DNA of 32,000 nucleotides, from contig NZ_VZZK01000017.1 in NCBI RefSeq assembly GCF_008806385.1, positions 2,177-34,176 of the forward strand, in the 5' to 3' direction. Each line of letters begins with the position of its first letter. The first letter of the stretch is position 1. Of this stretch, positions 8,867 to 32,000 are shown piece by piece. Made by a program: the position numbers and the translations under genes. The DNA comes from Methylobacterium soli. Lineage in GTDB: Bacteria; Pseudomonadota; Alphaproteobacteria; Rhizobiales; Beijerinckiaceae. Below the pieces are notes generated by a model. It did no database searches and had not been told where the DNA came from. It saw nothing but the letters and a program-made list of their open reading frames with translations.

Positions 8867-8872
8867 CTCTTT

Positions 8873-9127: not shown

Positions 9128-9440
9128 GGCTCAGTTCAACGGGTGGCGATCACTCATGCCGAGCATGTAGGCCCCGGTCATGCTGGCGCAACGCGGCGCT
9201 TGAGGCTTGAGGGGCGAAGCAGTCGCGCCAAGCTGGAACGTCGAACGGCACGATCTAAGGGACAGTTGATGCATGTATGCATTCCGAGCGGCTGGAGAGG
9301 GCGCCGGGACCGGCGGGTGAGCCGAATCGCTCGAGAAGAGCACCGCGGTCCGTCACCAGCGACGTCATCGCCTGCCTTCAGAGACGCATCAACGGAATGG
9401 CGAGTCGGTGCACGACGAAATGCATCAAACGCACCAGCCC

Positions 9441-10436: not shown

Positions 10437-10677
10437 TATTTTCGAACCTCATGATGTCACTAACCAGACATCTTAATCTTGTATTTTTGGTAGATACGCA
10501 GCGACTGGCAAACAGGATTGGCCGTTGTTCGAGCGACTGCTGTGGACAAGCCTCCGTGAACGCGCAGTTGTCGCGGTCATGGCTCCAGTGCAGGCTTCGC
10601 AGATCCTGAGAGAGGGCAGGCCGTTCTCTTGTCAACGATGAAAATCGTTCTCTGATGGAAGGCGCCAAATCGGTCTC

Positions 10678-10890
10678 TCAGTTCACCGGTTGCTGGCCGC
10701 TCATACCGAGCAGATAAGCTCCTGCGATCAGCTGCTCGCCGGTCACCTCTTGGCCGTCGACCATGTAGGCCTGCTGGCCGTCCTGCTCGACAATTTCGAG
10801 CGCCAGACCGCCCGCGATGAGGGATCGGATCGCGTCGCTCAGAAGCTCGTCGATGGGCGAAAGCTCAGCCATGTACCAGATGGTACGCAT
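10678..10890 (-). CDS. hypothetical small acidic protein
   Basis: The C-terminal part of ORF 10678..11022 (MRTIWYMAELSPIDELLSDAIRSLIAGGLALEIVEQDGQQAYMVDGQEVTGEQLIAGAYLLGM..) looks protein-like, while the N-terminal extension is Arg/Pro-rich. The start is uncertain (ATG at comp. 10890 or 10872) and there is no clear SD. Confidence 0.35.
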   Translation of the reverse strand: MRTIWYMAELSPIDELLSDAIRSLIAGGLALEIVEQDGQQAYMVDGQEVTGEQLIAGAYLLGMSGQQPVN

Positions 10891-11076
10891 TGCCAGCGGA
10901 AATCCCAAACAGGTCTCCCGCCCCTGTCCCCTCCCCGGCACGCTCCGCCCGAGGCGCGAGAGGACGTCGCGCCAAGTCTGAGCGCCGGACGGTCTGATCG
11001 GAAGCGTGGGTGAGGCTGACATCGACCGAGAGCGGCGGGGAAACGCCCGGGTCAGGCGAGCTGACGGCGAGAACCG

Positions 11077-11388
11077 CTAGTGCCGAGAGTGCGCAGCCCT
11101 TCGCCGACTGAGGGCGGCGCCGTGGCGCTGTGGTTTGCGGGAGCGGCGGATTTGGGCCTGCGGCGGCGCCACTTGTTGAGCCGCGGCAGCGGGACCGTCG
11201 TGAGCCGCGACGATGCGGCGCGCCTCGTCAACGCTCATCCCGCAGGTCGTCAGGCCTTGCAGAGTGCCCAGGGCGCGATGGTACTCAGGGAGGTTGGGGC
11301 ATCCGGGGATGCCCCACGCCAAGGCTGCGGCGGGCACTCCAATCGCCGTCACGAAAGCGAGCAGGGCAGCGCTATTCCTGAACGACAA
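11077..11388 (-). CDS. small secreted protein (hypothetical)
   Basis: TTG start with a GAGGAG SD about 9 nt upstream. A signal-peptide-like N-terminus SFRNSAALLAFVTAIGVPAAALAWG is present. Two Cys residues and a basic tail follow. Confidence 0.45.
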   Translation of the reverse strand: MSFRNSAALLAFVTAIGVPAAALAWGIPGCPNLPEYHRALGTLQGLTTCGMSVDEARRIVAAHDGPAAAAQQVAPPQAQIRRSRKPQRHGAALSRRRAAHSRH

Positions 11389-11676
11389 AGCCGAGGCTCC
11401 TCACGATCGATGGCGGATACCTGTCGGTAGGATACCGCATGCCTCGTCAGATGGGACCAGGCAGTTGGCTGCACCCCCTCTCGCGAGCCACCCGTCCGTC
11501 GGCCTCCTGCTTGGCTATGCGGAGGGAACTCGAGCCCGCCGGCCACGCTCCGACGCGACAGCACTGGGACGGCCAAAGTCGCGCGGGTGCACCGCGCAAA
11601 CAGAGTGTTGTTGTGGAGTAGTTGGGGAGCGCCCGAGATTCCGCGTCATCGGATGGCGCTAAGTCATTGATATGTA

Positions 11677-11729
11677 TGGTGGGCGGTGAGGGACTCGAAC
11701 CCCCGACCCTCTCCGTGTAAAGGGGAGAC
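11677..11729 (-). tRNA. 3' fragment of tRNA-Val(UAC): anticodon arm through CCA, no 5' half; probable attachment-site copy
   Basis: The reverse complement reads TCCCC-TTTACAC-GGAGA / GGGTC / GGGGG-TTCGAGT-CCCTC / ACCGCCC-A-CCA. These are the anticodon stem-loop (anticodon TAC, one C-A mismatch in the stem), a 5-nt variable loop, the T arm, the 3' acceptor strand, the discriminator and CCA. No matching 5' acceptor (GGGCGGT) or D-arm (TAGCTCAG) follows. The homology ends at a 14-bp palindrome. Confidence 0.65.
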
Positions 11730-16465: not shown

Positions 16466-16963
16466 ATGACTGATCAGCAACCGCTCGGCCCACCCTGCCA
16501 CCGGAGGGGCGCTACTATCAACATCCTGAGGACCACCCTCGGTGCGCTTCCCTCGGCCTCTGAGGTGGCTTTCCCGGGTCTGTTCGCATGGTCGCCAGTA
16601 TCCACCTCCGCCGTCACCCGCACCCTGAAAATCGACAAGGGCTTGTGGGGGACGTGGCGCAATCGCGGGATCACACCGAGCCCGATGCCCGAGGCCTGGT
16701 TCCGGCGCGCCGCCGGCCGGCCCCTGAACTACCGGCTGGACAGTGTGCTGGCCTGGCTCGCGGCTCGGCGCGGCGAACCGTTTGATCCCCTCACCACCTG
16801 GCGGCTCAGCCTCTTGACCGGCTTCGAGACCGACGTGTCCGATCCGGAAGAGGTGCGGAAGCTTGCCCGCCTCTATGCGCAGGCGGTCGGCCCGCACCTC
16901 CCTGGTGGTGTGAGCTTCACGTCGCAGGGGTTCCGGGAATACCTCGCATCGCTCTTGATGTAG
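16466..16963 (+). CDS. hypothetical protein (possible DNA-binding protein of the element)
   Basis: This 165-aa ORF has GC-rich third positions throughout. Its ATG sits 2 nt after the last iteron. The central segment STSAVTRTLKIDKGLWGTWRNRG....YRLDSVLAWLAARRG is HTH-like. The start is uncertain (an alternative GTG lies near 16564). Confidence 0.5.
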   Translation: MTDQQPLGPPCHRRGATINILRTTLGALPSASEVAFPGLFAWSPVSTSAVTRTLKIDKGLWGTWRNRGITPSPMPEAWFRRAAGRPLNYRLDSVLAWLAARRGEPFDPLTTWRLSLLTGFETDVSDPEEVRKLARLYAQAVGPHLPGGVSFTSQGFREYLASLLM

Positions 16964-17465
16964 GTTGGTCCATCCAGATAGCCGCGTGAGCCTGCCATGC
17001 GTAAAGGGATGCTGGAGCTGATGAACACCCTGGCCTCAAGTGTTATCGCCTTGAACAGCCTGGCCGATGATTTGATGCAGGCGGCATCGTCGGTGGACGA
17101 CGCCGTGGCAATTAAGGTGATGCGCGGCGTGGCCTCCGGCATCGGGTCCGCGCACTGGAGATGCAGGGGCAACTGGCTGTTCTGAGTGCGGACTACGCCG
17201 AGCGGTTACACACCGGCTCCTGGATCGAGTGAAGGCCGCCCTGTTATCATCCTAGTAAAACCAACATTTTTTGGAAATATAAATGTCAGATAGTGTATTT
17301 TAACAAGCATAAATATCTGTAAAATGGCACCCACCCATCCAATTACATTGTAGCGTCAAGTGTTTTGTTTGTGCTCTAGGTAGATTGTTCTGTTGCCCTC
17401 TTCCGGATCATGTTCCACTCTCCTGGCTACGCTTCGCCGTAGGCGAAGCAGGGGATGAGGTCGGG

Positions 17466-18224
17466 ATGAGCAAGCCACCAGGGAACGGGCTGTGTGACAA
17501 CCCCATGGGTTCCCATGGACCTGTCACATCAGTGCCTCGACCCCTGGTGGCCTACCTCAGAGTGAGCACGGACAAGCAGGGCCGCAGTGGTCTCGGCATT
17601 GAGGCGCAGCGCATGGCCATCACTGCCTTCGCCGAAGCCAACGGGTTCATCATCGTGGCCGAGCACGAGGAGCACGAGACCGGCAAGGGCAGCGATGCCC
17701 TGGAGCGCCGGCCTCAGCTGGCTGCCGCCCTGGCATCGGCCCGCAAGCTCCGATGCCCGGTGGGAGTGGCGAAGCTCGATAGACTGTCCCGAGATGTGGC
17801 TTTCATCGCCAGCCTGATGGCGCAGCGCGTCCCCTTCTTGGTGGCCGAGCTAGGTGAGAACGCTGACCCGTTCATGCTGCACATCTACGCGGCTCTGGCC
17901 GAGCAGGAGCGTCGGCTTATCGCGGCCCGGACCAAGGCGGCCATGGCTGGCCTGAAAGCACGAGGTGTCCTACTCGGAAACAGGACCAACCTCGCTGAAG
18001 CCGCGATTAAGGGCGCGACCGTGAACCGAGCCGACGCTTCGGCCTTCGCCGCCAACGTGCTGCCGGTGATCGAGAGCATCAGGGCAGCTGGTGCCGGCTC
18101 GCACCGGGCTATCGCTGCGGAGCTGAACGCGCGTCGGATCGGGACGGCGCGAGGCGGCACGTGGAGCGCCGTGCAGGTCGGGCGGATCGTGGCTCGCGCC
18201 AGCACCTGTTCACTCACTCCCTGA
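17466..18224 (+). CDS. serine recombinase (resolvase/invertase family)
   Basis: [23 protein letters not shown] carries the catalytic Ser motif. [10 protein letters not shown] and a C-terminal HTH-like segment ([30 protein letters not shown]) are also present. The track ORF starts at 17385, but I prefer ATG 17466 (GAGG upstream). ATG 17505 is also possible. Confidence 0.85.
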
Positions 18225-18241
18225 ACCAGATAATTCAGCCC

Positions 18242-18670
18242 ATGCTTGAAAAAATCTCTGCTATCAATTTGATAAACGACTACCATTCAAACGACGCCAG
18301 GCAAGCTTTCAGAGCTCAAACACCTCAGCTTAGAGCATTTGCTGTTGTTGGTATTGTATACGCAGTCCGGTGCCGCTGGCATCCATCCGCGGACATTACC
18401 AATATTCTTCGAGCAGAGCTAGCAGATGTATCATCGCTCTTGAATTTAGAAAAGAGAGCACACCAGACATATATAATACATATCAGACGAATGATGATCA
18501 AAATATGTAATCTAGATACTAACAGTGACGCTGTATTACCTATCAAGAATTCCAGAGATGAGCAGTCGGCCCTTCAGAGCCAGCTGCAATACTTACATTC
18601 CAAAAACATTTTCACAGCCGCTCACATGCGAATTTGGGCACTCAAGAAAGGAGTAGACCCACTGATCTGA
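18242..18670 (+). CDS. hypothetical protein, AT-rich orphan ORF
   Basis: The ATG at 18242 (MLEKISAINLINDYHS..) lies inside track ORF 18161..18670, whose first 27 codons overlap the recombinase 3' end. Composition is markedly AT-richer than the flanks. I recognise no motif. Confidence 0.45.
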   Translation: MLEKISAINLINDYHSNDARQAFRAQTPQLRAFAVVGIVYAVRCRWHPSADITNILRAELADVSSLLNLEKRAHQTYIIHIRRMMIKICNLDTNSDAVLPIKNSRDEQSALQSQLQYLHSKNIFTAAHMRIWALKKGVDPLI

Positions 18671-18911
18671 GCCGAAAAACAGGTGATGCAGCTAAATTCA
18701 GGCTTAAAAACAAATAGTTACTTACCAGAACCGCCCTCACTCTAATCTCGGCGCTTCTTAGCCCGTCGTGGTTTTGGAGCAACGCCGCGGTTCATTCGCA
18801 ACTTAAAGATGCAATTGCGCTAGACGTCCCGCGTTGCTCCCCGCACGGTCAGCGCAGAAAATGGCTACGCGGCGTTCGCCGCATCAAAAAGTGTACGGGG
18901 CGGGGATACCT

Positions 18912-21900
18912 ATGACGGAGCTTACGCCCGGCGACTTCGTCGAACTGCGCGGGCGTCCCTGGCTCGTCGAGGCCGTAGACACCTACACACCGCTGAAGCC
19001 TGTGCGCCTCTCCTGCATTGCCGACGACGCTCAAGGTGAGCCGCTCGAGGTGTTATGGGACGCCGAGGTCGACGCGCGCGTGCTTGATCGCGATGACTGG
19101 GCGCGGGTTGGCCGAGGCGGCCCCGACAGCGCCGAGGTGCTTGCCGCCTACCTGCGGGTGATGCAGTGGAACTCGGCTACAGCCGCCGAGCGAGATTTGC
19201 TTCAGGCACCATTCCGAGCCGGGATTAAACTCGACGCCTACCAGCTCCTGCCATTGCGCAAGGCGCTGCGGCTGCCGCGGGTGAACCTCCTGATTGCCGA
19301 CGACGTCGGCTTGGGCAAGACCATCGAGGCCGGCCTAATCGTGCGCGAGCTGCTCCTGCGGCGGAGGATCGACTATGTCGTCGTGTCCGCACCTCCGGCT
19401 ATGACCGAGCAGTGGCGCGACGAGCTCGCTGCAAAGTTCGGCCTGTCGTTCACGATCATTGACCGTGAGCATCTGAACGAGCTGCGCCGCACGCGCGGCT
19501 TTGGGTCGAACCCTTGGCGCACCGGCTCGCGCTTCATCATTTCACACCGTCTTCTCACGGACGAGACTTACGCCGCCGACTTGCGCGAGGCGTTAGGCTC
19601 GTTCCGCGCCCGCGCGCTCTTGATCCTAGACGAGGCTCACCACGCGGCACCGGCGGCCAGTGCACGCTACGCTGTCTCGAGCCAGTTCACGAAGGCTGTG
19701 CGCGACTTGGCGGAGCGCTTCGAGCACCGCCTGTTCCTCTCAGCCACGCCGCACAACGGGCACTCGAACAGCTTCTCAGCTCTCCTCGAGATGCTCGATC
19801 CCCAGCGGTTCACCCGCGGCGTCACAGTGAGCCCGAAGGACATCGAGCCGGTCATGGTCCGGCGGTTAAAGAGCGACCTGCGCCGGATCAGCGGCGGCTT
19901 CCCGCACCGGGTCGTCGAGGCGATCCCGATCCATGGTCTCCCGGCAGACGCGCCTGAACTCGTCCTGGCCGACAAGCTCACAGCCTATGGCGAGTTGCGC
20001 CTGCAACGCATCGCCAAACTTCCGACGGCGAAGGCTGCTCTCGCCAAGCTCGCCTTCGTCGGCCTTCAGCAGAGATTGCTGTCCTCGATCGCAGCCTTCG
20101 CTCGGACGCTCGCAGTGCATCGCCGCTCGCTGCTCGCCGCGATCGAGGATACCAACGATGAGAACGTCCAAACGGTCGGTGTCGCGAACCACGATCACGC
20201 GGAGCTATTCGATCTCGGGCTCGACGAGGACGAGGCTGAGCGGGCGGCCCAAGCTGACGAGGACGCCACGGCGGACATCGAGACCCGGGCCGGCACCGTC
20301 GAGGCCCCACGCGCGGCCCTGCACGCCGAACTGGCGGCCGTCGACGCCATGCTCGTAATCGCTGAGAGCGAGAAGGGGAGGAGCGACGCACGCACGCGAT
20401 GGCTTGCCAATTGGATCCGCGCCGAGTTGCTCGATGGCGCGCGCTGGCGGGAGCGCCGGCTCATCATCTTCACTGAGTACGAAGATACTCGGCGCTGGCT
20501 GGAGCGGCGTTTGATGGAGATGATCGGCGATACTGAGGACGCAGAAGCTCGTATCCTCGTGTTTTCGGGCGCCACGCCGGCCGATCGGCGCGAGGACGTT
20601 AAACGGGCTTTCAACGCTGATCCACGCGTGGAGCCTGTGCGCATATTGTTGTGCACGGACGCAGCGCGCGAGGGGCTGAACCTGCAGAGCCATTGCGCCG
20701 ATCTCCTACACTTTGACTTGCCCTGGAACCCAGCGCGGCTCGAGCAGCGCAACGGGCGCATTGACCGCAAACTCCAGCCCGCACCAGAAATCCGCTGCCG
20801 CTACTTCCGCTACGAGCAACGCGCCGCCGACATCGTCCTCGACGCGCTGGTGCGGAAGACCGAGACGATCCGCGAACAGCTTGGCTCAGTTGGACAGGTG
20901 ATCGAGGGGCGCATTGCGAAGCGGCTGGCAGAGGAAGGCATCCGGGCACGCGGCGAGACCGATCTTGCCCACGCCATCGCAGCTGAGGATGCCGCCGAGC
21001 TCCTCGCCCGCGCGCGCGACGAGATGGACGACGCCGAGCGCGCCCGCCACGAGCGCCTGCTGCGGGAGCAAGACGTGCTGCGCCAAGCGCTTGAAGCATC
21101 ACGCGAGCGCGTCGGCGTTGACCCGGACGACTTGCGCCGGGTGGTGCGGGCCGCGCTCGCACGGGCCGATTACCAGCTCGATGAGGCAGTGTCCGACCCC
21201 GTCAATCTGGTCGAAACCTTCCGCTTCGATCCCGAACATCCGGCCTTCGCGGCTGAGGGCGGCTGGTCGGACGCCTTTGACGACCTTCGGGTCCGCCCGC
21301 GCCGCCGCGGCGAGCGGCTCAACGAGTGGCGCAGGGCCGCGCCTCCGCGAACCATAAGCTTTGAGACGCCGGAGCTCGCCGATGGGCGCCTCGCGTCGAA
21401 CGTCGTGCAGGTGCATCTTGAGCACCGCCTCGTGCGACGCCTCCTCTCTCGCTTTATCAGCCAGGGCTTCCAGGCTGGCCTTTCCCGGGTTTCAATGATC
21501 CGAGGGCCCGGGGCGCAGCCGCGTGTCGTGTTGATTGGTCGGCTCTGCGTGTACGGGCCGGCGGCGGCGCGGCTGCACGAGGAGATCATCCCAGTCACGG
21601 CGATCTGGACCGAGGCTGACCGAGGCGTGAAGCCGTTGCGGCCACTCGGCGAGAGCGGCGGGGCGACGACGCTGCGCCAGCTCGAGGACGCTCTGCGCGG
21701 GGCTGTGCCAGCGCCTGAGGGCGCAGTCACCCGTGTTCAGCGCCTCGTCGCGCAGGACATTGACCAGTTGCGTCCTGAACTGGAGCGGATCGCGACCGAG
21801 CGTTTAACCCGCGCTGAAGCACTGCTCGCCCGCCGCGCGGAGGAGGAGGCGAACGGTCTCGCCGGCCTGCTCACTGGCCAGTGCGCGCGCATTGTGCGGG

Positions 21901-22121
21901 AGCTCGGCGCGGCTGAGCGGGAAGCCGCCCAGTTCGAACTCGGGTTTCTAGCCGAGGAGCGCCGCGAGCGCGACCGAGATCGCCGGCACTGGGGCGAGAA
22001 GCTCGCTGCCCTAGAGCGCCAGGTCGTGACAGAGCCCGAGCGCGTACGCACGGGATACCGGGTCAACGCGCACCGGCTTGAGCCTGTTGGCCTCGTCTAT
22101 CTCTGGCCTGCGACCGGCTGA
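18912..22121 (+). CDS. drmD: SNF2-family helicase, DISARM class 1 DrmD-like
   Basis: Motif I is LIADDVGLGKTIEAG (about 19296-19322). Motif II is LILDEAHHAAP (about 19626-19643). Also present are LFLSATPHNGHSNSF and the C-terminal helicase lobe (ILLCTDAAREGLNLQ, DLPWNPARLEQRNGRIDR). The track start TTG 18834 is rejected in favour of ATG 18912 (MTELTPGDFVELRGRPWLV). Confidence 0.85.
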   Translation: MTELTPGDFVELRGRPWLVEAVDTYTPLKPVRLSCIADDAQGEPLEVLWDAEVDARVLDRDDWARVGRGGPDSAEVLAAYLRVMQWNSATAAERDLLQAPFRAGIKLDAYQLLPLRKALRLPRVNLLIADDVGLGKTIEAGLIVRELLLRRRIDYVVVSAPPAMTEQWRDELAAKFGLSFTIIDREHLNELRRTRGFGSNPWRTGSRFIISHRLLTDETYAADLREALGSFRARALLILDEAHHAAPAASARYAVSSQFTKAVRDLAERFEHRLFLSATPHNGHSNSFSALLEMLDPQRFTRGVTVSPKDIEPVMVRRLKSDLRRISGGFPHRVVEAIPIHGLPADAPELVLADKLTAYGELRLQRIAKLPTAKAALAKLAFVGLQQRLLSSIAAFARTLAVHRRSLLAAIEDTNDENVQTVGVANHDHAELFDLGLDEDEAERAAQADEDATADIETRAGTVEAPRAALHAELAAVDAMLVIAESEKGRSDARTRWLANWIRAELLDGARWRERRLIIFTEYEDTRRWLERRLMEMIGDTEDAEARILVFSGATPADRREDVKRAFNADPRVEPVRILLCTDAAREGLNLQSHCADLLHFDLPWNPARLEQRNGRIDRKLQPAPEIRCRYFRYEQRAADIVLDALVRKTETIREQLGSVGQVIEGRIAKRLAEEGIRARGETDLAHAIAAEDAAELLARARDEMDDAERARHERLLREQDVLRQALEASRERVGVDPDDLRRVVRAALARADYQLDEAVSDPVNLVETFRFDPEHPAFAAEGGWSDAFDDLRVRPRRRGERLNEWRRAAPPRTISFETPELADGRLASNVVQVHLEHRLVRRLLSRFISQGFQAGLSRVSMIRGPGAQPRVVLIGRLCVYGPAAARLHEEIIPVTAIWTEADRGVKPLRPLGESGGATTLRQLEDALRGAVPAPEGAVTRVQRLVAQDIDQLRPELERIATERLTRAEALLARRAEEEANGLAGLLTGQCARIVRELGAAEREAAQFELGFLAEERRERDRDRRHWGEKLAALERQVVTEPERVRTGYRVNAHRLEPVGLVYLWPATG

Positions 22122-22172
22122 GATCCAGGCCATTCCATCCCGCTACCGTCCCAAATCGCGCCGCGGACCTGC

Positions 22173-25100
22173 ATGCCCGATATTAATGTCGACCCGACCA
22201 CCGATTGGCTGAAGTACCTCGAGCCGTTCAGTTCAGGCCTCGTCGTTGCTGGTCCTGTCCTGGCAGATCTTGGCCTCGCGCCGGAGCCGCAGGCCGCACG
22301 TGACACGGCTGCCGCTGCGTCCGTGATTGCGTTGCTCGAGGAAGAAGGTCCGGCACTGACTGACGCTTGGGCATTTTTTCGCGAGATCCTCGGGTGGGAG
22401 ACCCGCATCGTTGCAGGCAGCCCCGGCGGTCCCACGATCCCCGAGGCGCTGCACGTACGCCTTCCCGAGCACGACACGACACTTGCGCCGACATTCGCTG
22501 TACGCGATCTCGCGGTGCGCAGCGGCGAAGCTTGGCAGCTCCTCGTCCGCGTAGAACCTCCAGGCGTCGGGCCGGACACGCGCGGGGCGCTTGACGGCTG
22601 GGAGGCCACGCCTCAGCAGCGCTTGGAGCGCCTGTTGCGCGAGACCGGCGTGCCAGCGGGTCTCCTCGTCACGGACAGCGTGTTGCGCCTCGTCTACGCG
22701 CCAAAGGGCGAGACCTCGGGTTGGCTCGGTTTCCCCCTGCGTCCGCTCGCCACGGTCGCGGGCCGGCCGATGCTCGGTGGCCTCAAGCGTGTGCTGGGCC
22801 GCGCCGCCCTATTCACGGATGGCGACACGCATCGCCTGCCTGCGATCCTGCGGCGCTCGCGCGACGAGCAGTCAAACGTCTCTACCGAGCTCGCCGGTCA
22901 GGTCCTCGGCGCTCTGCACGAGTTGCTGCGAGGACTGGACGCGGCCGACGCTGGTCTGATCCGCGGGCTCTCCGCAGCGCCCGCCGGCCAGGGGCACCTC
23001 TACGAGGGGCTGCTCGCGGTGCTTATGCGCCTCGTCTTCATCCTCTACGCCGAGGACCGCGGCCTGCTACCTTCCTCGGGCGAGGCCCGAGCGCGGGAGA
23101 TCTATGAGCGCAACTATTCCCTGCGCGGCCTTTATGGACGGCTCGCAGAGGATGCGGGGCTGCACCCCGACACAATGGATGAGCGCCGCGGTGGGTGGGG
23201 GCAGCTCGTCGCCATGTTTCGCCTCGTCCACGGCGGCTACCCTGGCTTCGTGCGTCGCCGCGGTGGCAAGTTGTTTGACCCCGCTGTCTATCCCTTCCTC
23301 GAAGGAAGCGTAGAGGCGGGTGCGCCTGCGCGCGTGCTGCCGGTGTCGGACGGCTGCGTGCTGCGCGTGCTCGAAGGGCTGATGACCCTACGGAGCCGTG
23401 GCGGCGCCCGCGAGCGCCTGTCCTACCGTACGCTGGACGTCGAGCAGATCGGCTCGGTTTACGAGACGGTGATGGGCTTCACGGTGCTGCCGGCGAGCGG
23501 GCCAGCACTCGCTGTGAAGGGCGGCAAAAACAACCGCACACCGATCTTCCTCGACCTCACTGAGATCGTCAGGTTGAGGGGCGAGGAACGGCTGAAGCGC
23601 ATCAAAGAGGCAGGCCGCGCGAGCCTCACCGCGGCGCAGGGCAAGGCGGTGAAGGCAGCAATCTCGGTCGCTGATCTCGCCGCGGCGCTAGACGGGATTG
23701 TCGACGAGCGCGCCTCTCCAGGACGCACAGTGCAGGCCGCCGGCACCCCGGTGCTTCAGCCCACCGACGAGCGCCGCCGCACTGGCTCGCACTACACCCC
23801 GCGCAGCCTCACCGAGCCGATCGTCCGCTACGCCCTGGAGCCGGCCTTTGACCGCCTCGGTGACGCCGCAGCACCGGATCAAATCCTCGACCTTAAAGTT
23901 TGCGATCCGGCGATGGGCTCGGGGGCTTTTTTGGTCGAGGCCTGCCGCCAGCTCGGTGCCCGCCTCGTGCAAGCTTGGGCCCACCACCATGCGACACCGG
24001 CGCTGCCGCCCGACGAGGATGCCGACCTTCATGCCCGCCGTCTCGTAGCGCAACGCTGCCTCTACGGCGTCGACAGGAACCCTCGCGCCGTCGATCTGGC
24101 CAAGCTATCACTGTGGCTCGCGACGCTCGCTGCTGACCACGAGTTCACCTTCCTCGACCATGCACTACGCGAAGGTGACAGCCTCGCGGGCCTGAACCGA
24201 GCCCAAATCGCCGCTTTGCATTGGGACGAAAGTAAACCGCCGACGCTCGCCGGCCACCTCGTCGCCGACCATCTGCGCGAGGCAGAAGTCGAGCGCTCAG
24301 CGATCCGCGCGCTTGCTGAGACCGCAAGCGAGGTAGAGCTCAGCCCGTTGCTGCGGCGTGTAGAAGCTAAGCTTAACGTCGCTCGCTTGATTGGTGACGG
24401 CGTGATCGCGGCGCATTTCTGCGCCGAAAAGCCGAAAGCTCGTCTCGCAGCGCTCGTCACCCTTCAGAAGGCTGTGCAGAGCCACCTCGGATCGGTGGCG
24501 TGGCACGACGCGGTCGCGCCGCTCTCGGCTGGGCTCACGGACGGGGCGCACCCATTGCGGCCGTTCCATTGGTCGGTTGAGTTTCCGGAGGTGTTCTCGC
24601 GCGAGAACCCCGGCTTCGACGCGATCGTCGGCAACCCGCCCTTCGCTGGCAAGAACACGACGATCACCGGCAACCGCGAAGGTTATCTCCCCTGGCTTCA
24701 GACCCTACACGCGGGTGCGCACGGCAACGCCGATCTGGTTGCGCATTTCTTCCTGCGGTGCTTCGCACTGCTGCGCGACGGCTGCGCCTTCGGGCTGATC
24801 GCCACCAACACGATTGGCCAGGGTGACACCCGCGACACTGGCCTCGCTGCGATCCTCGCGACCGGCGGGGCAATCAGGCGTGCGACGCGCCGTCTGAAAT
24901 GGCCTGGCGAAGCCGCGGTAGTTGTAAGCGTTGTACACGTCGCCAGAGGAACGGCCGCCTCTCCGATCCTTGATGGGCGGCAGGTGCGGCGGATCTCGGC
25001 TTATCTTGTAGAGGGCGACCTTGACCGCTCACCAGAACGCCTCGTAGCCAACGCACGCAAGGCGTTCATCGGCTCTTACGTGCTCGGGATGGGCTTCACT

Positions 25101-26183
25101 TTCGACAACTCTGCGGCGGCGAAGGGTGAGGCAGAAAAGTTGGAAGTCATGCAGACTTTAATTGCGAAGGATAAACGGAACGCGGAGAGAATTTTTCCTT
25201 ATATTGGCGGCGAAGAAGTCAATAACTCGCCAACTCATGCTTATCACCGCTATGTAATTAATTTTGCAGATTTCCCGCTTCGACGCGATCCTGCTCTTTC
25301 CTCTTGGAATGCAGCGTCAAAAAAAGACCGCGAGATATGGGTTAAGGAAGGAGTAGTTCCGTCTGACTATCACGGACCAGTCAGTGATGATTGGAGCGAT
25401 TTGTTAGAAATCGTCGAACGGCGAGTTAAACCATCCCGGCGATCTCTTCCCCCCATCAATGCATGGAATAGATCCGTCGCTAAGAAATGGTGGCTATGGG
25501 GCGCCGCTCGAGTTGAACTGAACAAGACTATTGAGGCATCGAAAACGATATTGTTCATACCAAATGTGGCGCCACACCTTACAGTTGCGCGCCTACCTTC
25601 GGATATCGTCGTGGCTGCGCCGCATAACGTTATTGCCTATGAGTGCTATTCCGCGTTTGGAGTAGCTCAATCTCGAGCGCATGAAGTATGGACGCGCTTC
25701 TTTGCTTCCTCGATGAAGGATGACCTCCGCTACACGCCTTCCGATTGTTTTGAAACCTTTCCATTTCCGCCAAGCTTTGAGGCCGCGCTTGCTCTCGAAG
25801 CGGTCGGCCAAGCCTATCACGATCACCGCGCTGCACTGATGGTCGCGCGCAGCGAGGGCATGACCAAGACTTACAATCGCTTCCACGATCGAGCTGAGCG
25901 GTCGGAAGACATCCAGCGCCTGCGCGACTTGCACTCCGATATGGACCGTGCCGTGCTGGCAGCCTACGGCTGGGACGACCTTGCCGCTCGCGCGAAAGCT
26001 CAGTGGCTCGGCGATGAGAACGAGCCCGAGCACACTTACCAGGGTCGCCTGTTCTGGCCGTCCGCCTTCCGTGATGAGGTGCTCAGTCGCCTGCTCGCGC
26101 TGAACGCCGAGCGTGCGGCGGCCGAGCGTGCTGCGGGGCTCGTCGCAGCTTCGTCCGATGAGGCCGACGATGAAGCAGCCTGA
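22173..26183 (+). CDS. drmMI: large N6-adenine DNA methyltransferase (Eco57I/MmeI-like gamma-class), DISARM class 1 DrmMI-like
   Basis: 1336 aa. GSHYTPRSLTEPIV is present. The AdoMet motif is KVCDPAMGSGAFLVEA and the catalytic motif is IVGNPPFAGKN (NPPF at 24633-24644). The C-terminal region, with RYTPSDCFETFPFP, resembles the MmeI-type recognition/C-terminal domain. Confidence 0.85.
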   Translation: MPDINVDPTTDWLKYLEPFSSGLVVAGPVLADLGLAPEPQAARDTAAAASVIALLEEEGPALTDAWAFFREILGWETRIVAGSPGGPTIPEALHVRLPEHDTTLAPTFAVRDLAVRSGEAWQLLVRVEPPGVGPDTRGALDGWEATPQQRLERLLRETGVPAGLLVTDSVLRLVYAPKGETSGWLGFPLRPLATVAGRPMLGGLKRVLGRAALFTDGDTHRLPAILRRSRDEQSNVSTELAGQVLGALHELLRGLDAADAGLIRGLSAAPAGQGHLYEGLLAVLMRLVFILYAEDRGLLPSSGEARAREIYERNYSLRGLYGRLAEDAGLHPDTMDERRGGWGQLVAMFRLVHGGYPGFVRRRGGKLFDPAVYPFLEGSVEAGAPARVLPVSDGCVLRVLEGLMTLRSRGGARERLSYRTLDVEQIGSVYETVMGFTVLPASGPALAVKGGKNNRTPIFLDLTEIVRLRGEERLKRIKEAGRASLTAAQGKAVKAAISVADLAAALDGIVDERASPGRTVQAAGTPVLQPTDERRRTGSHYTPRSLTEPIVRYALEPAFDRLGDAAAPDQILDLKVCDPAMGSGAFLVEACRQLGARLVQAWAHHHATPALPPDEDADLHARRLVAQRCLYGVDRNPRAVDLAKLSLWLATLAADHEFTFLDHALREGDSLAGLNRAQIAALHWDESKPPTLAGHLVADHLREAEVERSAIRALAETASEVELSPLLRRVEAKLNVARLIGDGVIAAHFCAEKPKARLAALVTLQKAVQSHLGSVAWHDAVAPLSAGLTDGAHPLRPFHWSVEFPEVFSRENPGFDAIVGNPPFAGKNTTITGNREGYLPWLQTLHAGAHGNADLVAHFFLRCFALLRDGCAFGLIATNTIGQGDTRDTGLAAILATGGAIRRATRRLKWPGEAAVVVSVVHVARGTAASPILDGRQVRRISAYLVEGDLDRSPERLVANARKAFIGSYVLGMGFTFDNSAAAKGEAEKLEVMQTLIAKDKRNAERIFPYIGGEEVNNSPTHAYHRYVINFADFPLRRDPALSSWNAASKKDREIWVKEGVVPSDYHGPVSDDWSDLLEIVERRVKPSRRSLPPINAWNRSVAKKWWLWGAARVELNKTIEASKTILFIPNVAPHLTVARLPSDIVVAAPHNVIAYECYSAFGVAQSRAHEVWTRFFASSMKDDLRYTPSDCFETFPFPPSFEAALALEAVGQAYHDHRAALMVARSEGMTKTYNRFHDRAERSEDIQRLRDLHSDMDRAVLAAYGWDDLAARAKAQWLGDENEPEHTYQGRLFWPSAFRDEVLSRLLALNAERAAAERAAGLVAASSDEADDEAA

Positions 26184-26234
26184 ACTTCGGGGCGTTGCAG
26201 CGAGCCAGCGGCTTTGCGTGACTGAGAGGAAGCG

Positions 26235-27077
26235 ATGAGGACGATCCGAGAGGCTCGCTCCGGTGATGCCTGGTTGCGGCTGCTGCAAACGAAGGCAGGT
26301 TTCACAGGCGTCGTCTTCATTGAGGACAAGCGCCGCTTTACTATCGAGGGTGACACTGCGGACAAAGTTTGGCAGCTCCTGCAAGACGAGGCCGCCAAGC
26401 TTAACCCGAGCTACTTCGGATTTTCCGGCGCGCGGGCTCGCTTCCTACGGATGATGCCAGACGGCTTCGCGGATCCTGTCTATTTGGCGGAGGAGCGCGC
26501 CTACAAGTTGCGGGCGAAGGAGCGGCTCGACGCGGCCCTGCCGCTCGACGCAGCTCTGGCTTGGAATGGGGATGGCAAAGCCGCGCTGGCCGCCTTTCGG
26601 GCGACGAACTTGCTCTCGCCATTTGAGAGCACCCGGATCGGTGAGGCTCTGCGCTCATCGGCTGCCGCCCCTTACATTCGTGGCGCAGCGGCCTTTGCGA
26701 GCGGCGCGGTCGAGGATGGGATCCGAGCCATGCAGGGGGCCTTAAAACCCTTCGCGATCGCAAAATGGACAGCTCTTACCTACCTGCCGTTCCTCTGGCG
26801 GCCCGACGCGCACCTGTTCCTCAAGCCCGAGGTCACGCGCGAATTCGCCGAGCGCGTTGGACATCCCTTTGCCCACGCCTACGCGCCGGAGCTTCACCCG
26901 GACATCTATCGCTCGCTCCTCGACCTCGCCGCTGCGATGCGGACCGAGACCGCCGACCTGCAGCCCGCCGACATGATCGACGTGCAGAGCTTTATCTGGG
27001 TGGTCGGTCGCTACACTGAGGCCGACGAAGCCGCCGTTCTCGCTAAGGCAGTTGTGACGAAATCGGGAACCCCATGA
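26235..27077 (+). CDS. hypothetical protein embedded in the DISARM operon
   Basis: 280 aa with operon-like codon bias. Its stop overlaps the drmA start (ATGA at 27074-27077). I see no catalytic motif (no P-loop, no HxK, no obvious nuclease motif). Confidence 0.7.
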   Translation: MRTIREARSGDAWLRLLQTKAGFTGVVFIEDKRRFTIEGDTADKVWQLLQDEAAKLNPSYFGFSGARARFLRMMPDGFADPVYLAEERAYKLRAKERLDAALPLDAALAWNGDGKAALAAFRATNLLSPFESTRIGEALRSSAAAPYIRGAAAFASGAVEDGIRAMQGALKPFAIAKWTALTYLPFLWRPDAHLFLKPEVTREFAERVGHPFAHAYAPELHPDIYRSLLDLAAAMRTETADLQPADMIDVQSFIWVVGRYTEADEAAVLAKAVVTKSGTP

Positions 27078-30000
27078 CCGCCACCACGCCGCTCGCCGTC
27101 CGCGGGCATATCGTCAAGACCTTCCGCCGCGACCTCGTTGGCCCATCACCCGACGACATCGATCTCTCTCGGGAGCGGCTCTCCGAGAACCCTTCGCGTT
27201 GGTATCTGACAGGCTTTCTGGCGCCTGCCGACGACGCAGCGACCTTGGGCGGCGATGCAGACACCGACGAGCCTGGTCTGCTGGATGAAGCCGACCACGA
27301 AGGCGAAGAGCCGGACCCAGTTGAAGCAGGTGGCGCGGCGGCCGATCGGCAGGAACCCGAAGCGTCCAACACGCGCCGCCGCTTCTTACCATCGACGATT
27401 GGGCTCACCGTGCTGTTGCCGCCCGACGTGCGCGAGGTCGAGGCGATCGTCACCTGGGGGGATTACGCCACGGTGCCGCCGCTGCCTGATAGCGTGCTGC
27501 TCGGCGAGCCGGAAACCGACGAGGACGGGAAGCCCAAACGCCGCCGTCGCGAGGACGTCAACTGGGTCCGCGCGCCGAAAGAGCGTCGCTTGCGCCTCGT
27601 CGTGCCCGAAGCTGGCCGGGCCACCGCCATCGTGGTTCCAGAAAGCGCGGCCGAGCAGGCAGCTATCGGCGGCCTCGAGCTCGACGCGCACGCCCGTCTG
27701 TTCTCCTACGAAACGCCGGATGGCGGCCGAGAGGAGGTCCGCGCGCTCACCGTCGTGCTAGTCAATCGCCGACGCCCGGCTGGGCGCTTCTACGCCGACG
27801 TGGCCTTCGCCTTTCAGGCGCGCTTACGCCTAATTTGCGCGCAAGGCTTACGTCCCCGGCGCGACCTCTCCGGCCTGAAGTCCGCCGACCCGGACCTGCG
27901 GCTCGCCGATCTGCACTATCGAGACGTGTGCGAGTGGGCGGTCGGCCGCAACACCGCCGCACGCTGGGAGGATCCGGCTGCGGGCTCGGTGACCTGGGCC
28001 GAGACTGACCCACTGCCCTCTGCTGAGGTCGAGCGCGTCGCACCGAACGAGGACGATGCCCTGAAGCAGGCCGTCGTCTTCGGCATGGATGACCTTGCGG
28101 AGGCTGCGCGAAATAGTGGTTCGTCCCTGGCACAGGCGCTTGGTGCGCTACCTGAGCTCTATGATGCTTGGGTTACGGCGAAGCAGCGTGTTGAACTCAC
28201 TGGCTTGCCTGATCGTCGGCGTGCGACCGCTGCGACCCTTGTCACCGACCAGGAGCGTGCCCGGGACCGCATTGCAGAGGGCATTGGGCTGCTGACTGGC
28301 GATGGAGCTGAGAACCGCCACGCCCGCACTGCCTTCAGGCTGATGAATGCGGCGGTCGCTGAGGCGGCGCGTCGGCGCAATTCGGCCCACGCGAAACCGG
28401 CTTGGCGCCCATTCCAGCTCGCCTTCATCCTGCTCAACCTCGCAGGCCTAACCGAGAAGGCGCATCCCGACCGTGCTGTCGCGGACCTGCTGTTTTTCCC
28501 GACCGGAGGCGGCAAGACCGAGGCCTACCTAGGTCTCGCCGCCTACACGATCGCTCATCGGCGTGTGACCGGATCCGGCCTGCTCGGCGCAGGTGTGGCG
28601 GTCATTATGCGCTACACCCTTCGGCTGCTCACCCTCGACCAGCTCGCACGCGCTGCCGGCGTCGTCTGCGCACTCGAGCTGATGCGGACAGACGGCAAGC
28701 ATCTCGATGAGAAGGACCGCCCTCTGCTTGGCGATTGGCCGATCGAGATCGGGCTGTGGGTAGGGTCTGATGCCTCACCAAACCGCCTCGGCGGCAAAGG
28801 CGACAAGGGGGATGACACCGCGGTTGGTCGTGTGGCCGATTTCCGAAAGGGCAAAGGCAAGGCGCCGGCACCGCTGAAAGCCTGCCCGTGGTGCAGCACG
28901 CCATTCACGAAGAACTCGTTCGCCTGCGTGCCCAACGACACTGCGCCAACGAACCTGGAGCTGCGTTGTGACAACCTCACTTGCGACTTCTCGGGATCGC
29001 GCGCGCTGCCAGTGCTTACCGTCGATGAGCCGATCTACAGGCGCCTTCCGGCCTTCCTCATTGCCACTGTCGACAAGTTCGCGAGCCTACCTTGGGAGGG
29101 GCGCACCGGCGCCTTCTTCGGGCACGTCGATCGCTTCGATGCGACGGGCTTCTATGGCGCTGCCGAGCCTCGGATTGGGCGGCGCCTCGACAACGGCTGG
29201 TCGCTTGATCCACCTGATCTTGTTATCCAAGACGAGCTACACCTGATCAGCGGTCCGCTCGGGACAGTCGCCGGCCTCTACGAAACAGCGATTGACGCAC
29301 TCGCTACCCGCGTGAAGGGCGAGACCCGCGTGCGTCCGAAGATCGTCGCCTCAACTGCAACGGTCCGTAGGGCGGGTGCGCAGATAAAGGCCCTATTCGA
29401 TCGGGACGCGACGCAGGTCTTCCCACCGCCGGGGGTGAACCGCACTGACAGCTTCTTCGCCCGCACTGTGTCGGCGGACGTCAATCCGGCGCGGCTGTAC
29501 CTGGGTCTGGCCGCGCAGGGCCGCGGCCCGAAGCTCGTGTATCTACGTGCGCTGACGACCCTACTGGCGGCCGCGCAATCCGCCTACGCCGTGACGGCAC
29601 CGGACGTACCGGAGGGCAAGCGCAACCCGGCCGACCCGTACATGACGGCGCTGTGCTACTTCAACGCATTGCGCGAGCTCGGTGGGGCACGACGCATCGT
29701 AGAGGACGAGGTACGGAAGAACGCGGCCTCCTACGGTCGAGAGCGGCGACGCCAGGAGCCTCCGGATCAGCCATTTGCAGATAGGCCCGTGCGCGAGCCC
29801 ATGGAGCTGACTTCGCGCGTCTCAACCGACGAGGTCGCAGCTGCCAAGCAGCGGCTCGAAGCGGTGTTCGGTGGCGACGAGGCGACCGTAGACGTTGCGC
29901 TTGCCACCAACATGATCTCGGTGGGCCTCGATATCACGCGGCTCGGCCTGATGCTGGTGCAGGGTCAGCCCAAAACGGCGGCTGAGTACATCCAAGCTAC

Positions 30001-30601
30001 GAGCCGCGTAGGGCGCGACCACGACCGACCTGGCCTCGTTGTGGCAATCCTCAACTTGCACAAGCCGCGCGATCGAATGCACTTTGAGCAGTTCGGCCAC
30101 TTCCACCGGACGTTCTATCGGGCGGTTGAGGCCACGAGCGTGACCCCGTGGGCAGCCCGTGCACTTGACCGGGCGCTCGCAGCCGTCGTCGTGGCGGCCG
30201 CTCGCCATCTCGATCCGATGCTGACGCCGAACGAAGCGGTCGTAATGCTCCGAGACCAGTCGGCGACCCGGGCGGCGGTATGCGACACAATCGTCGCACG
30301 TGCGCCCGAAGCCGCGGTCCCCGGCGGCCGAGCGGCGCTGCGTGCACAGGTCGAGGGGCTGCTCGAGGCCTGGATCGCGACAGTAGATGCGCAGACGGCG
30401 AGCGGCGTGCCGTTCGGCTACGCGCAGAAGAAGAGCCCTGGGCGCCTCCTACACATGCCGCTCGAGCGCGACTGGGACGGTCTTGAGCCCGCTCACAAGC
30501 AGTTCCAAGCCAACCGCTCGATGCGAGACGTCGAGCCCGCGGTGCTTCTCAAAGTGCGCGACCGCAATGGTCACGCGATCGCAAACGCGGACGATGTCTG
30601 A
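27074..30601 (+). CDS. drmA: DISARM DrmA-like superfamily-2 helicase
   Basis: 1175 aa. The Walker A is FFPTGGGKTEAYLG (about 28498-28527). DELH lies in VIQDELHLISGP (29231-29242). VASTATV, LATNMISVGLDI and QATSRVGR are also present. A Cys-rich insert reads CPWCSTPF..C..LRCDNLTCDF. Confidence 0.85.
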   Translation: MTATTPLAVRGHIVKTFRRDLVGPSPDDIDLSRERLSENPSRWYLTGFLAPADDAATLGGDADTDEPGLLDEADHEGEEPDPVEAGGAAADRQEPEASNTRRRFLPSTIGLTVLLPPDVREVEAIVTWGDYATVPPLPDSVLLGEPETDEDGKPKRRRREDVNWVRAPKERRLRLVVPEAGRATAIVVPESAAEQAAIGGLELDAHARLFSYETPDGGREEVRALTVVLVNRRRPAGRFYADVAFAFQARLRLICAQGLRPRRDLSGLKSADPDLRLADLHYRDVCEWAVGRNTAARWEDPAAGSVTWAETDPLPSAEVERVAPNEDDALKQAVVFGMDDLAEAARNSGSSLAQALGALPELYDAWVTAKQRVELTGLPDRRRATAATLVTDQERARDRIAEGIGLLTGDGAENRHARTAFRLMNAAVAEAARRRNSAHAKPAWRPFQLAFILLNLAGLTEKAHPDRAVADLLFFPTGGGKTEAYLGLAAYTIAHRRVTGSGLLGAGVAVIMRYTLRLLTLDQLARAAGVVCALELMRTDGKHLDEKDRPLLGDWPIEIGLWVGSDASPNRLGGKGDKGDDTAVGRVADFRKGKGKAPAPLKACPWCSTPFTKNSFACVPNDTAPTNLELRCDNLTCDFSGSRALPVLTVDEPIYRRLPAFLIATVDKFASLPWEGRTGAFFGHVDRFDATGFYGAAEPRIGRRLDNGWSLDPPDLVIQDELHLISGPLGTVAGLYETAIDALATRVKGETRVRPKIVASTATVRRAGAQIKALFDRDATQVFPPPGVNRTDSFFARTVSADVNPARLYLGLAAQGRGPKLVYLRALTTLLAAAQSAYAVTAPDVPEGKRNPADPYMTALCYFNALRELGGARRIVEDEVRKNAASYGRERRRQEPPDQPFADRPVREPMELTSRVSTDEVAAAKQRLEAVFGGDEATVDVALATNMISVGLDITRLGLMLVQGQPKTAAEYIQATSRVGRDHDRPGLVVAILNLHKPRDRMHFEQFGHFHRTFYRAVEATSVTPWAARALDRALAAVVVAAARHLDPMLTPNEAVVMLRDQSATRAAVCDTIVARAPEAAVPGGRAALRAQVEGLLEAWIATVDAQTASGVPFGYAQKKSPGRLLHMPLERDWDGLEPAHKQFQANRSMRDVEPAVLLKVRDRNGHAIANADDV

Positions 30602-30603
30602 GC

Positions 30604-32000
30604 ATGAGCAAGAACGCCCAACGCCTGTCGCAGCTCGTTTCGACCTTTGGCCCCGGCAGCATGGTTGACCTGCCGACGCGCTCGATCGTCGTCGGAGGCT
30701 TGGAACAGTGGGACATGCGCCCCGGAACGTTTCAGCCGGTGAGCGAACCTCGCCTCGCTCAGCGCCTCCAGATACTGCTGCAAGAACGTGGTCAACTGGA
30801 CCAAGGGCAGCGCCTCAACTTACGCACTCCGCCCGTGAGCGACGGCAACGGCGAACCGAAAGGCGTGGCTGCGCCTATCTTCCCGAACTGGTTCGTCTGC
30901 GACCAAGTCGAGGCGAACGCCGAGGGCACCCCGACGCGCCGGCGCCGGCTGGTGCAGTGGCGCGACCTCGACCCCAAAGGTCGCCGCCGCTTTACGCCCG
31001 AGGGCGGCAAGCGGACGGAGGTGACGCCGATCCGCTTCGTATGCGCTTGCGACAAGGGCCATTTGCAGGACATCGAGTGGCGCTGGGTCGTCCACGGCGC
31101 CACCCCTTGCCAAGAACCGATGTGGATTGAGGAGCGCGGCACGAGCGCCGACCCGGCTGACACCTCGGTGGTCTGCGGCTGTGGCAAGCGGCTATCGCTG
31201 CAGGAAGCATTTCAGCCCCGCCGCCTTGGCTTTTGCAAAGGCGAGCGCCCCTGGCTGCTCGACCGTGATCCCAACGGGTGCGGCGACGGCACTACGCCGC
31301 TCAAGCTGCTCACACGCACCGCGACCAACACGTACTTCCCGCAGGTACTGACTGTAATCTCGCTGCCGAGTGAGGAGGACGTGCTGACGAAGCTCGTGGA
31401 CGAGATCATCGGCGAGATGAACAAGGTCACCTCCATCGAGCGTGTTGGCCTGTTTCGGGAGTTCAACGAAGCCGCAGCAGCGAGCCTCACACGCTACTCC
31501 GATGCTGAGATCTTTGACTGCCTGACCCGCCTGCGTGAGGGTGCCACGGCAGACGCAGCGCGCTCGCCGAAGGTCGCCGAGTTCGATCTTTTCGCGAGCG
31601 GGCGGCCGGAGATCGGGACGAACCACCCCGGTGCCAAACTCTACGCCCAGACTTTGGCGCGAAGCGACTGGGACGATGGAAGCTGGGCGAGCCTCAAGTT
31701 CGTGCAGGCGTTGGTAGCTGTCCACCGCCTTCGCGAGGTGTCCTGCCTCTACGGCTTCACGCGCTTCGAGGCAGCTCCGACCGCGGCCGACGGCGACATC
31801 GAAGATATCAGCCTGGCCGTGCATGGCGCGCCAATCGCCAGGGCGACCGACTGGCTGCCGGCCTGCGAACAATTCGGCGAAGGTCTGTTCGTGCACGTCG
31901 ACAGCGACGCGATCGCCACGTGGCTCAATGGGGCAGGAGATCGCCATCGGCAGCTCGTCGGCGGCTACAACCGATGGAAAATCCGCTTTGGCGCTGCGGC
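30604..32000 (+). CDS. drmB: DISARM DrmB-like protein (DUF1998 family), 5' part; continues past the right edge
   Basis: The ATG lies 2 nt after the drmA stop, and my manual translation of the frame found no stop through position 32000. It is absent from the track because it is open-ended. Recognisable segments are MSKNAQRLSQLVSTFGPGSMVDLP.., the Cys/His clusters FVCACDKGHLQDIEW, VVCGCGKRLS and FCKGERPW, and later REVSCLYGFTRFE. Confidence 0.8.
   Translation, partial: MSKNAQRLSQLVSTFGPGSMVDLPTRSIVVGGLEQWDMRPGTFQPVSEPRLAQRLQILLQERGQLDQGQRLNLRTPPVSDGNGEPKGVAAPIFPNWFVCDQVEANAEGTPTRRRRLVQWRDLDPKGRRRFTPEGGKRTEVTPIRFVCACDKGHLQDIEWRWVVHGATPCQEPMWIEERGTSADPADTSVVCGCGKRLSLQEAFQPRRLGFCKGERPWLLDRDPNGCGDGTTPLKLLTRTATNTYFPQVLTVISLPSEEDVLTKLVDEIIGEMNKVTSIERVGLFREFNEAAAASLTRYSDAEIFDCLTRLREGATADAARSPKVAEFDLFASGRPEIGTNHPGAKLYAQTLARSDWDDGSWASLKFVQALVAVHRLREVSCLYGFTRFEAAPTAADGDIEDISLAVHGAPIARATDWLPACEQFGEGLFVHVDSDAIATWLNGAGDRHRQLVGGYNRWKIRFGAA

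Follow-up and report, generated by a model that had tools for sequence, protein, structure and literature searches.

A four-gene class 1 DISARM operon with an additional gene in the drmMI-drmA junction, on a tRNA-Val-associated island of Methylobacterium soli

The class 1 DISARM system of Serratia sp. SCBI comprises the genes drmD, drmMI, drmA, drmB and drmC together with drmMII, and structures of its DrmAB complex are available (7S9V and 7S9W). In work dealing with the definition of DISARM the drmC gene is described as dispensable and often missing (bioRxiv 10.1101/2021.12.28.474362), and drmC-less DISARM has already been documented (PMC9142583). The present analysis concerns a DISARM locus of Methylobacterium soli, contained in a window, i.e. 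the whole stretch of DNA that was analysed, of 32,000 nucleotides (nt) (RefSeq assembly GCF_008806385.1, contig NZ_VZZK01000017.1, positions 2,177 to 34,176 of the forward strand). The comparison with Serratia showed the same four proteins, DrmD, DrmMI, DrmA and DrmB, in the same order, an adenine methylase of the same family and the same helicase motifs. The M. soli locus differs in having neither drmC nor drmMII, in an extra gene for a protein of 280 amino acids (aa), here called X280, between drmMI and drmA, in a DrmA of the 'short' type (1175 aa against 1325) and in its location on a tRNA-integrated island in an alphaproteobacterium. The locus is very probably a four-gene class 1 DISARM system, drmD-drmMI-(X280)-drmA-drmB, which forms the sole cargo of an integrative element of about 20.9 kb in the 3' end of a tRNA-Val gene and in which X280 would be an optional accessory.

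Relatives of this operon are found in other Alphaproteobacteria. Plasmid pMARC5 of Paracoccus marcusii and a plasmid of Sphingomonas parapaucimobilis carry drmD-drmMI-drmA-drmB with nothing after drmB, the DrmA proteins being 49-58% identical to that of M. soli; in these operons drmMI abuts drmA, whereas in M. soli X280 fills the junction. On the Sphingomonas plasmid (NZ_CP155757; locus L085, 2887-15333) the four-gene DISARM operon lies within a type I-E CRISPR-Cas locus, with cas3 on one side and casA on the other. The DISARM operon on a plasmid of Methylocystis sp. MJC1, with a DrmA 68% identical, has the same backbone and a variable slot after drmMI, which is occupied, instead of X280, by a gene annotated as PLD-family, a DUF2188 gene, an XRE/M78 regulator and a 171-aa gene.

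An earlier note on this DNA, made from its letters alone, had assigned the operon to the class 1 DISARM family, and curated models placed four of the five genes there, as DrmD, DrmMI, DrmA and DrmB, all above cut-offs. DrmD scored 988.5 bits with NCBIfam NF038317 DISARM_DrmD (cut-off 610) and 965 bits with PADLOC DrmD, and contained the Pfam domains SNF2-rel_dom and Helicase_C. DrmMI gave a full-length match of 1191.6 bits to PADLOC PDLC02643, together with the Pfam domains MmeI_Mtase, Eco57I, N6_Mtase and MmeI_TRD. DrmA reached 1055.6 bits with NCBIfam NF038325 DISARM_DrmAS (cut-off 950) and 848 bits with PADLOC DrmA, carried Helicase_C in Pfam and aligned with Serratia DrmA (chain A of 7S9V) at E 8.6e-152. 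The window holds the first 465 of the 615 aa of DrmB, and this part scored 284.9 bits with NCBIfam NF038324 DrmB_fam (cut-off 240); DrmB aligned with chain B of 7S9V at E 4.9e-83.

The end of drmB was obtained from another M. soli contig (L001), which matches the window at 100% identity along 10,433 base pairs (bp). In Pfam the 465 aa of DrmB inside the window gave no match; the DUF1998/MZB domain falls beyond position 32000, and the earlier guess that the last open reading frame (ORF) encodes a DUF1998 protein was borne out by a PF09369 match in the complete protein of 615 aa, at residues 480-582. The two absences that had been named as contrary evidence, of DUF1998 from the ORF at 30604 and of a DrmA-type match from the gene at 27074, were therefore not encountered. 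Positions 1-65 of L001 are an inverted copy of window 21515-21579, which looks like a contig-end assembly artefact.

An assignment outside DISARM, to some other SNF2 and methylase system (a type IIG/ISP-like restriction-modification system, ARMADA or Druantia) or to a decaying remnant, has been largely refuted and is most improbable. DrmMI does match PADLOC type IIG models, but the best of them gave 539 bits, below half of the DrmMI-model score, and the Pfam scan of the methylase revealed no nuclease domain. In ARMADA and Druantia the DrmAB-like protein is fused and bears nuclease domains (PMC13463889), so that these systems do not fit the locus, which encodes DrmA and DrmB as two full-length proteins, each scoring above its equivalog cut-off. 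The lack of drmC in the island and the fragmented Drm genes of two relatives would count for the non-DISARM or remnant reading; in M. soli, however, all four drm genes are intact and have kept their catalytic motifs. The two relatives (L023 and L055) are X280-bearing DISARM loci with fragmentary Drm matches, which probably represent decaying systems. The M. soli locus is a drmC-less form of class 1 DISARM, a known system.

The five genes form an operon on the + strand as had been claimed, and ORF calling recovered their coordinates and the gaps between them, in order 51 nt, 51 nt, a 4-nt ATGA overlap and 2 nt, the last of which places drmB directly 3' of drmA. The drmD ORF (18834/18912-22121, +) was given the ATG at 18912 as its start because the alignment to the NCBIfam DrmD model begins at residue 4, and the drmB frame is open from 30604 to the end of the window (+). 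In the called frames the content of guanine and cytosine (GC) at third codon positions was 0.74-0.79, a value that speaks for genuine coding sequence, the surrounding sequence having 62-66% GC. The high-GC alphaproteobacterial background had been supposed correctly, since M. soli has an NCBI entry, named 'hypothetical protein', with 100% identity to the 280-aa protein.

All eight motifs quoted in the earlier note were recovered, each at a single position. DrmD contains DDVGLGKT at residue 130 and DEAHH at 240, DrmMI contains DPAMGSGAFL (motif I) at 578 and NPPF (motif IV) at 821, and DrmA contains PTGGGKTEAY at 476 and DELH at 720; the last ORF, drmB, has STFGPGSMVDLP at residue 13. Each of the spacers at 22122-22172 and 26184-26234 is exactly 51 nt long, as is its counterpart in Methylobacterium sp. 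CM6246; their sequences showed no similarity to each other. A scan of 16900-32000 for promoters and terminators gave no excess over shuffled sequences.

It had been stated that drmC would lie outside the window and could not be assessed. The gene can be assessed and is absent, because the island boundary 82 bp past the drmB stop leaves no room for it, and the PLD gene which was to be looked for right after drmB was not found before the island end. The first screen for PLD proteins used the strict motif HxKxxxxD and missed a divergent PLD-like gene in a related locus (L048), to which Pfam gave 20 bits, less than its cut-off; the island screen was therefore redone with the looser HxKxxxx[D/E], which did not occur in any ORF of at least 80 aa in the six frames of the composite island. 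Those island proteins that were scanned with Pfam likewise gave no PLDc match. Since the drmC-less form is documented in the literature, this absence is no argument against DISARM.

The proposal that the methylase is a mosaic was confirmed by a loss of similarity and a drop in GC at 25139-25679. Nucleotide similarity to the Methylobacterium sp. CM6246 operon disappears in this segment of drmMI, while both flanks are 81-82% identical, and at the protein level the identity to CM6246 is 24-44% in the cassette against 68-100% elsewhere in the methylase. The cassette has a GC content of 0.482, compared with 0.663 for the rest of drmMI, and it adjoins and overlaps the Pfam MmeI_TRD match (residues 1120-1200). 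An exchange of the recognition domain, and hence a different methylation motif, is likely.

The statement that the operon is cargo of an integrative element proved well founded, since it is preceded by genes for an integrase, an excisionase-like protein, a PrimPol/DUF5906 primase and a resolvase, and a 49-bp tRNA-derived repeat flanks the unit. The last 49 bp of L001 (11023-11071, equivalent to window 32534-32582) are 94% identical to window 11675-11723. The right copy starts 82 bp past the drmB stop (32451), just outside the window, and the left copy ends 147 bp before the integrase start. The copy in L001 was recognised by Rfam RF00005 (positions 29-71, - strand, 20.5 bits) and is cut by the contig end; ARAGORN and Rfam found no intact tRNA in the window, where the continuation of the repeat (GGAGACTATTAATAGTC...) is not tRNA-like. 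The anticodon loop UUUACAC, read manually, would assign the gene to tRNA-Val(UAC). The three mismatches between the repeat copies, also by manual reading, comprise one T-loop base and a compensatory T-stem pair (G51:C63 vs C51:G63).

A tRNA-derived repeat at both ends is what integration into the 3' end of a tRNA gene usually leaves behind, and the position of the repeat at a tRNA site explains why the L001 assembly breaks there. Both features by which tRNA-integrated islands are recognised, a tyrosine integrase and direct repeats of a tRNA 3' end, were found. The island is, as delimited by sequence comparison, about 20.9 kb long, extending from 11675 to about 32582. The related operon of CM6246 (81-82% nucleotide identity) adjoins a PrimPol gene and a homologue of the 165-aa gene. 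The PrimPol-DUF5906 protein of M. soli matched Pfam Prim-Pol at E 2.9e-29 as well as DUF5906, and PHROG 1156 (DNA primase) at E 1.4e-55.

The island presumably resembles the P4-like satellites and islands that combine an int-alpA-primase backbone with defence cargo. An integrase, a small excisionase-like gene, a primase, defence cargo, integration at a tRNA 3' end and a direct repeat are shared; in contrast to the P4-like layout, the replication protein is of the PrimPol/DUF5906 type and not P4 alpha, a serine recombinase is present in addition, and no capsid-hijacking genes were seen.

Searches of Pfam, PADLOC, NCBIfam and PHROGs found nothing that matches X280, and hence no PADLOC or NCBIfam match to DrmE, the class 2 accessory, for which these two libraries contain models. 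A word-indexed search returned at least 590 homologues, and an exhaustive search returned 1055 representative clusters (50% identity, E <= 0.001). The AlphaFold2 model had a predicted local distance difference test score (pLDDT) of 93.7, and the helical domain alone had a pLDDT of 96.1 and a predicted template modelling score of 0.91. The predicted fold consists of a four-strand beta-meander with a helix (residues 1-56) followed by an all-helical domain. In an alignment at 27-54% identity the residues E87, K91, K/R197, D246 and D249 were conserved in 93-98% of the aligned sequences, which suggests that these polar residues may form a defined binding or catalytic site.

The evidence on the fold comes from Foldseek searches of PDB and BFVD, in which no match was obtained at E 0.001. 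The best-ranked coherent group in two PDB searches was that of the HhH-GPD glycosylases, including AfAlkA, EcAlkA, OGG1, MjOgg (probability 0.69), SsOgg, MutY and EndoIII, at non-significant values (E >= 0.07, template modelling (TM) scores of 0.20-0.34, root-mean-square deviation (rmsd) above 10 A). The Ogg2/MjOgg, AlkA, MutY and EndoIII proteins are two-lobed and all-helical, a build to which the predicted helical domain of X280 may be compared; X280 gives no profile signal, and neither the canonical hairpin glycines nor the catalytic Asp can be made out in it. A profile of 46 sequences searched against PDB sequences found only a DUF2059 protein at E 0.21, treated as noise; hhalign of the family with a manually entered sequence of E. 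coli EndoIII gave a probability of 0.1, and family profile searches against Pfam were negative as well.

At an equivalent N-terminal position, five of 46 distant members matched DUF3553 (PF12073) and four matched the PcrA/UvrD Tudor domain (PF21196); DUF3553 is described as a Tudor-like fold that serves protein interaction (PMC6511836). Residues 1-56 of X280 (26235-26402) superpose on dozens of uncharacterised phage proteins of 60-75 aa in BFVD, with a probability of 1.0, an rmsd of about 2 A and target TM scores of 0.55-0.70. A phage amino-acid:DNA transferase also occurred among the BFVD matches. One member, P0213 (624 aa), is a lone fusion of PLDc_2 (58-150) with an X280-like helical domain (403-611).

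The earlier note had named the extra gene among the features that made this instance worth attention. The gene is not peculiar to this operon; it recurs in a variable slot between drmMI and drmA, and its family is found mostly outside DISARM. Among 79 X280 loci from species-representative genomes, X280 stood directly after drmMI of class 1 DISARM in 16, one of which (L066) is a short contig with only a drmMI fragment beside X280. In six genomes, the window included, the stop of X280 overlaps the start of drmA (ATGA or TTGA), which points to co-translation. The remaining 63 loci had no conserved neighbour, about 80% of the family being outside DISARM; their flanking genes encoded GmrSD_N (4), ResIII (3), DUF488 (3), terminase (3), DndB (2) and BrxL, and others a type III-like Mod/Res pair, a type IIG-like methylase, Cas3, SbcC or plain metabolic proteins. 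In a neighbour-joining tree the DISARM-linked and unlinked copies interleave. In three sphingomonads (L007, L016 and L032) homologues of the island serine recombinase (33-41% identity) lie just downstream of a stand-alone X280 on the opposite strand, a hint that small mobile units may carry X280 from place to place.

Among DISARM relatives found by their DrmA, the junction between drmMI and drmA proved to be a variable slot, empty in Sphingomonas and Paracoccus and filled in Methylocystis as described above. The slot holds an XRE/M78 gene and a 171-aa gene in ten loci (L020, L022, L028, L048, L055, L069, L075, L083, L084 and L086), directly upstream of drmA; the first of the pair encodes a fused XRE-HTH/M78-peptidase of about 372 aa and the second a protein of 171 aa without a Pfam match. 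This pair, which is not in the window, is probably a regulatory module. An HD-domain protein occupies the slot in L057, MqsA and SecB do so in Thiodictyon, and Nostoc has kept a canonical drmC after drmB. In L048 a gene of 350 aa (4768-5820) stands beside X280 in the DISARM slot and gave the weak PLDc_2 match mentioned above (HAKLWLTE). X280 and the Methylocystis PLD gene are unrelated, as are the latter and the P0213 fusion, and no BLAST cross-matches were obtained between the slot PLD-like genes and Nostoc DrmC.

We take X280 to be an optional DISARM accessory that would contact DNA, and this reading is ranked first; the best guess is that it may act as a DNA-interacting sensor or effector add-on. 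A serious rival, possible if not favoured, regards X280 as an independent passenger, i.e. a stand-alone gene of defence or DNA metabolism or a mobile insert, which repeatedly landed in a permissive gap of the operon. It accords with the 63 of 79 species-level loci in which X280 occurs without DISARM or any common neighbour, with the varied company of the gene there, from methylase systems of type III-like and IIG-like character, Cas3, SbcC, GmrSD and DndB to plain metabolic genes, with the unlinked sisters of DISARM-linked copies in the tree, and with the close relatives in Sphingomonas and Paracoccus, which presumably work with an empty slot. A passenger would not readily account for the constant position immediately downstream of drmMI in 16 loci, which belong to several alphaproteobacterial families, nor for the overlap with the drmA start in six genomes, and no transposase or repeat flanks X280 in the window.

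It is also conceivable, though unlikely, that X280 replaces the missing PLD nuclease, as an effector or as an enzyme sensing damage or modification whose fold was derived from HhH-GPD glycosylases. The PLD-family gene in the same slot of the Methylocystis plasmid, the PLDc_2 fusion in one distant member, the glycosylases as the top coherent group in two Foldseek searches, the phage amino-acid:DNA transferase among the BFVD matches and the five conserved polar residues are in line with such a role. Against it stand the lack of a significant structural match and the empty profile searches against PDB sequences, Pfam and EndoIII; by manual reading, moreover, the hairpin of X280 has no Gly-rich HhH signature and a Lys occupies the usual position of the catalytic Asp. 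The fusion is a single case, and the co-occurrence of X280 with a weak PLD-like gene in L048 argues against simple replacement. A wider speculation, which we hold to be about as doubtful, is that X280 represents a new and widespread accessory family for DNA-surveillance defence, with a Tudor-like N-terminus and a glycosylase-like helical domain, which would plug into methylase-based systems (DISARM, type III-like, type IIG-like) and in drmC-less DISARM would supply the missing effector or a second sensing mode, e.g. for modified or damaged DNA.

Under the preferred reading, that of a four-gene DISARM system with X280 as an optional accessory, the mode of action can be outlined by homology with the characterised Serratia system. 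DrmMI would mark host DNA with N6-methyladenine in a motif set by the exchanged target-recognition region. The autoinhibited DrmA-DrmB helicase complex would load on unmethylated phage or plasmid DNA with 5' single-stranded overhangs, and its ATPase activity would then stop replication of the invading DNA; DrmD, an SNF2 ATPase, would assist in an undefined way. A nuclease, if needed, might be recruited from elsewhere, or its role might be taken by the slot gene, and X280 would be translationally coupled to drmA. The island would move by means of its tyrosine integrase and excisionase and would probably replicate after excision through the PrimPol primase.

Several points weigh against this reading. 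In the original definition drmC is a core gene, and the locus falls short of the textbook set of five genes. The right repeat and the end of drmB come from L001 and not from the window, and L001 stops inside the repeat, the intact tRNA lying beyond the available sequence. X280 may be irrelevant to DISARM, as about 80% of its family is elsewhere and the copies interleave in the tree. Finally, methylation, phage resistance, excision and replication are for this locus all inferred.

Table 1. Features of the M. soli island and its DISARM operon, in window coordinates
Feature	Coordinates	Strand	Basis
Left boundary, 49-bp attachment (att) repeat, 3' part of a putative tRNA-Val(UAC) gene, not an intact tRNA	11675..11723	-	Repeat comparison
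Tyrosine integrase, 397 aa	11870..13063	+	Pfam Phage_integrase, Phage_int_M, Arm-DNA-bind_3; PHROG 1, E 2e-53
Small excisionase/AlpA-like regulator, 61 aa	13189..13374	+	PHROG 66 'excisionase and transcriptional regulator', E 1.4e-6
PrimPol-DUF5906 primase/helicase-type replication protein, 756 aa	13976..16246	+	Pfam, PHROG
Serine recombinase (resolvase/invertase), 279 aa	17385..18224	+	Pfam Resolvase, E 9.7e-23; PHROG 125 DNA invertase
drmD, SNF2-like helicase, 1069 aa	18912..22121	+	NCBIfam NF038317, PADLOC, Pfam
drmMI, MmeI/Eco57I-type N6-adenine DNA methyltransferase, 1336 aa	22173..26183	+	PADLOC, Pfam
Swapped low-GC cassette in drmMI, about residues 1000-1150	25139..25679	+	Comparison with the CM6246 operon
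X280, 280-aa putative accessory protein, predicted N-terminal beta-meander and C-terminal all-helical domain	26235..27077	+	AlphaFold2 model, homologue searches
drmA, SF2 helicase of the 'short' type, 1175 aa	27074..30601	+	NCBIfam, PADLOC, PDB
drmB, DUF1998/MZB protein, 615 aa	30604..32000 in window; ends at window-equivalent 32451	+	NCBIfam, Pfam, PDB

The DNA to the left of the island shows some features of its own. Directly left of the att repeat, a low-GC stretch (8750-11660, GC 0.54-0.56) contains ORFs without annotation, one of which has a weak FkbM-methyltransferase match, and this stretch may represent an earlier acquisition of foreign DNA at the site of the island. Further left, at 6524-8265, a umuD-like gene (Peptidase_S24) and a umuC-like gene (IMS, IMS_C, DUF4113) were found, the latter with a single in-frame stop near 7369-7371, which makes it a pseudogene or reflects a sequencing error. 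At 2701-4399 (-), also outside the island, lie a truncated SapC-family ORF, covering the C-terminal half of the model only, and a gene for an SRAP, i.e. SOS-response-associated peptidase.

Class 1 DISARM, drmC-less operons and defence systems on integrase-primase islands are already known, and the core finding adds little beyond the known system; what is new, though a modest variant, is the combination of X280 with the lack of drmC on a tRNA-Val island. A cleanly bounded island of about 21 kb with DISARM as its only cargo is nevertheless a convenient natural cassette for cloning and testing, and the cassette exchange between two Methylobacterium operons constitutes a natural experiment on the change of DISARM specificity. 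X280 itself is a protein predicted to fold with confidence, and its family numbers more than 1000 sequence clusters without a Pfam entry. The occupants of the alphaproteobacterial slot, namely X280, the PLD-like genes, the XRE/M78 and 171-aa pair, the HD protein and the toxin-antitoxin-like pair, can be compared with one another, and such a comparison could address the question of how DISARM destroys DNA without DrmC.

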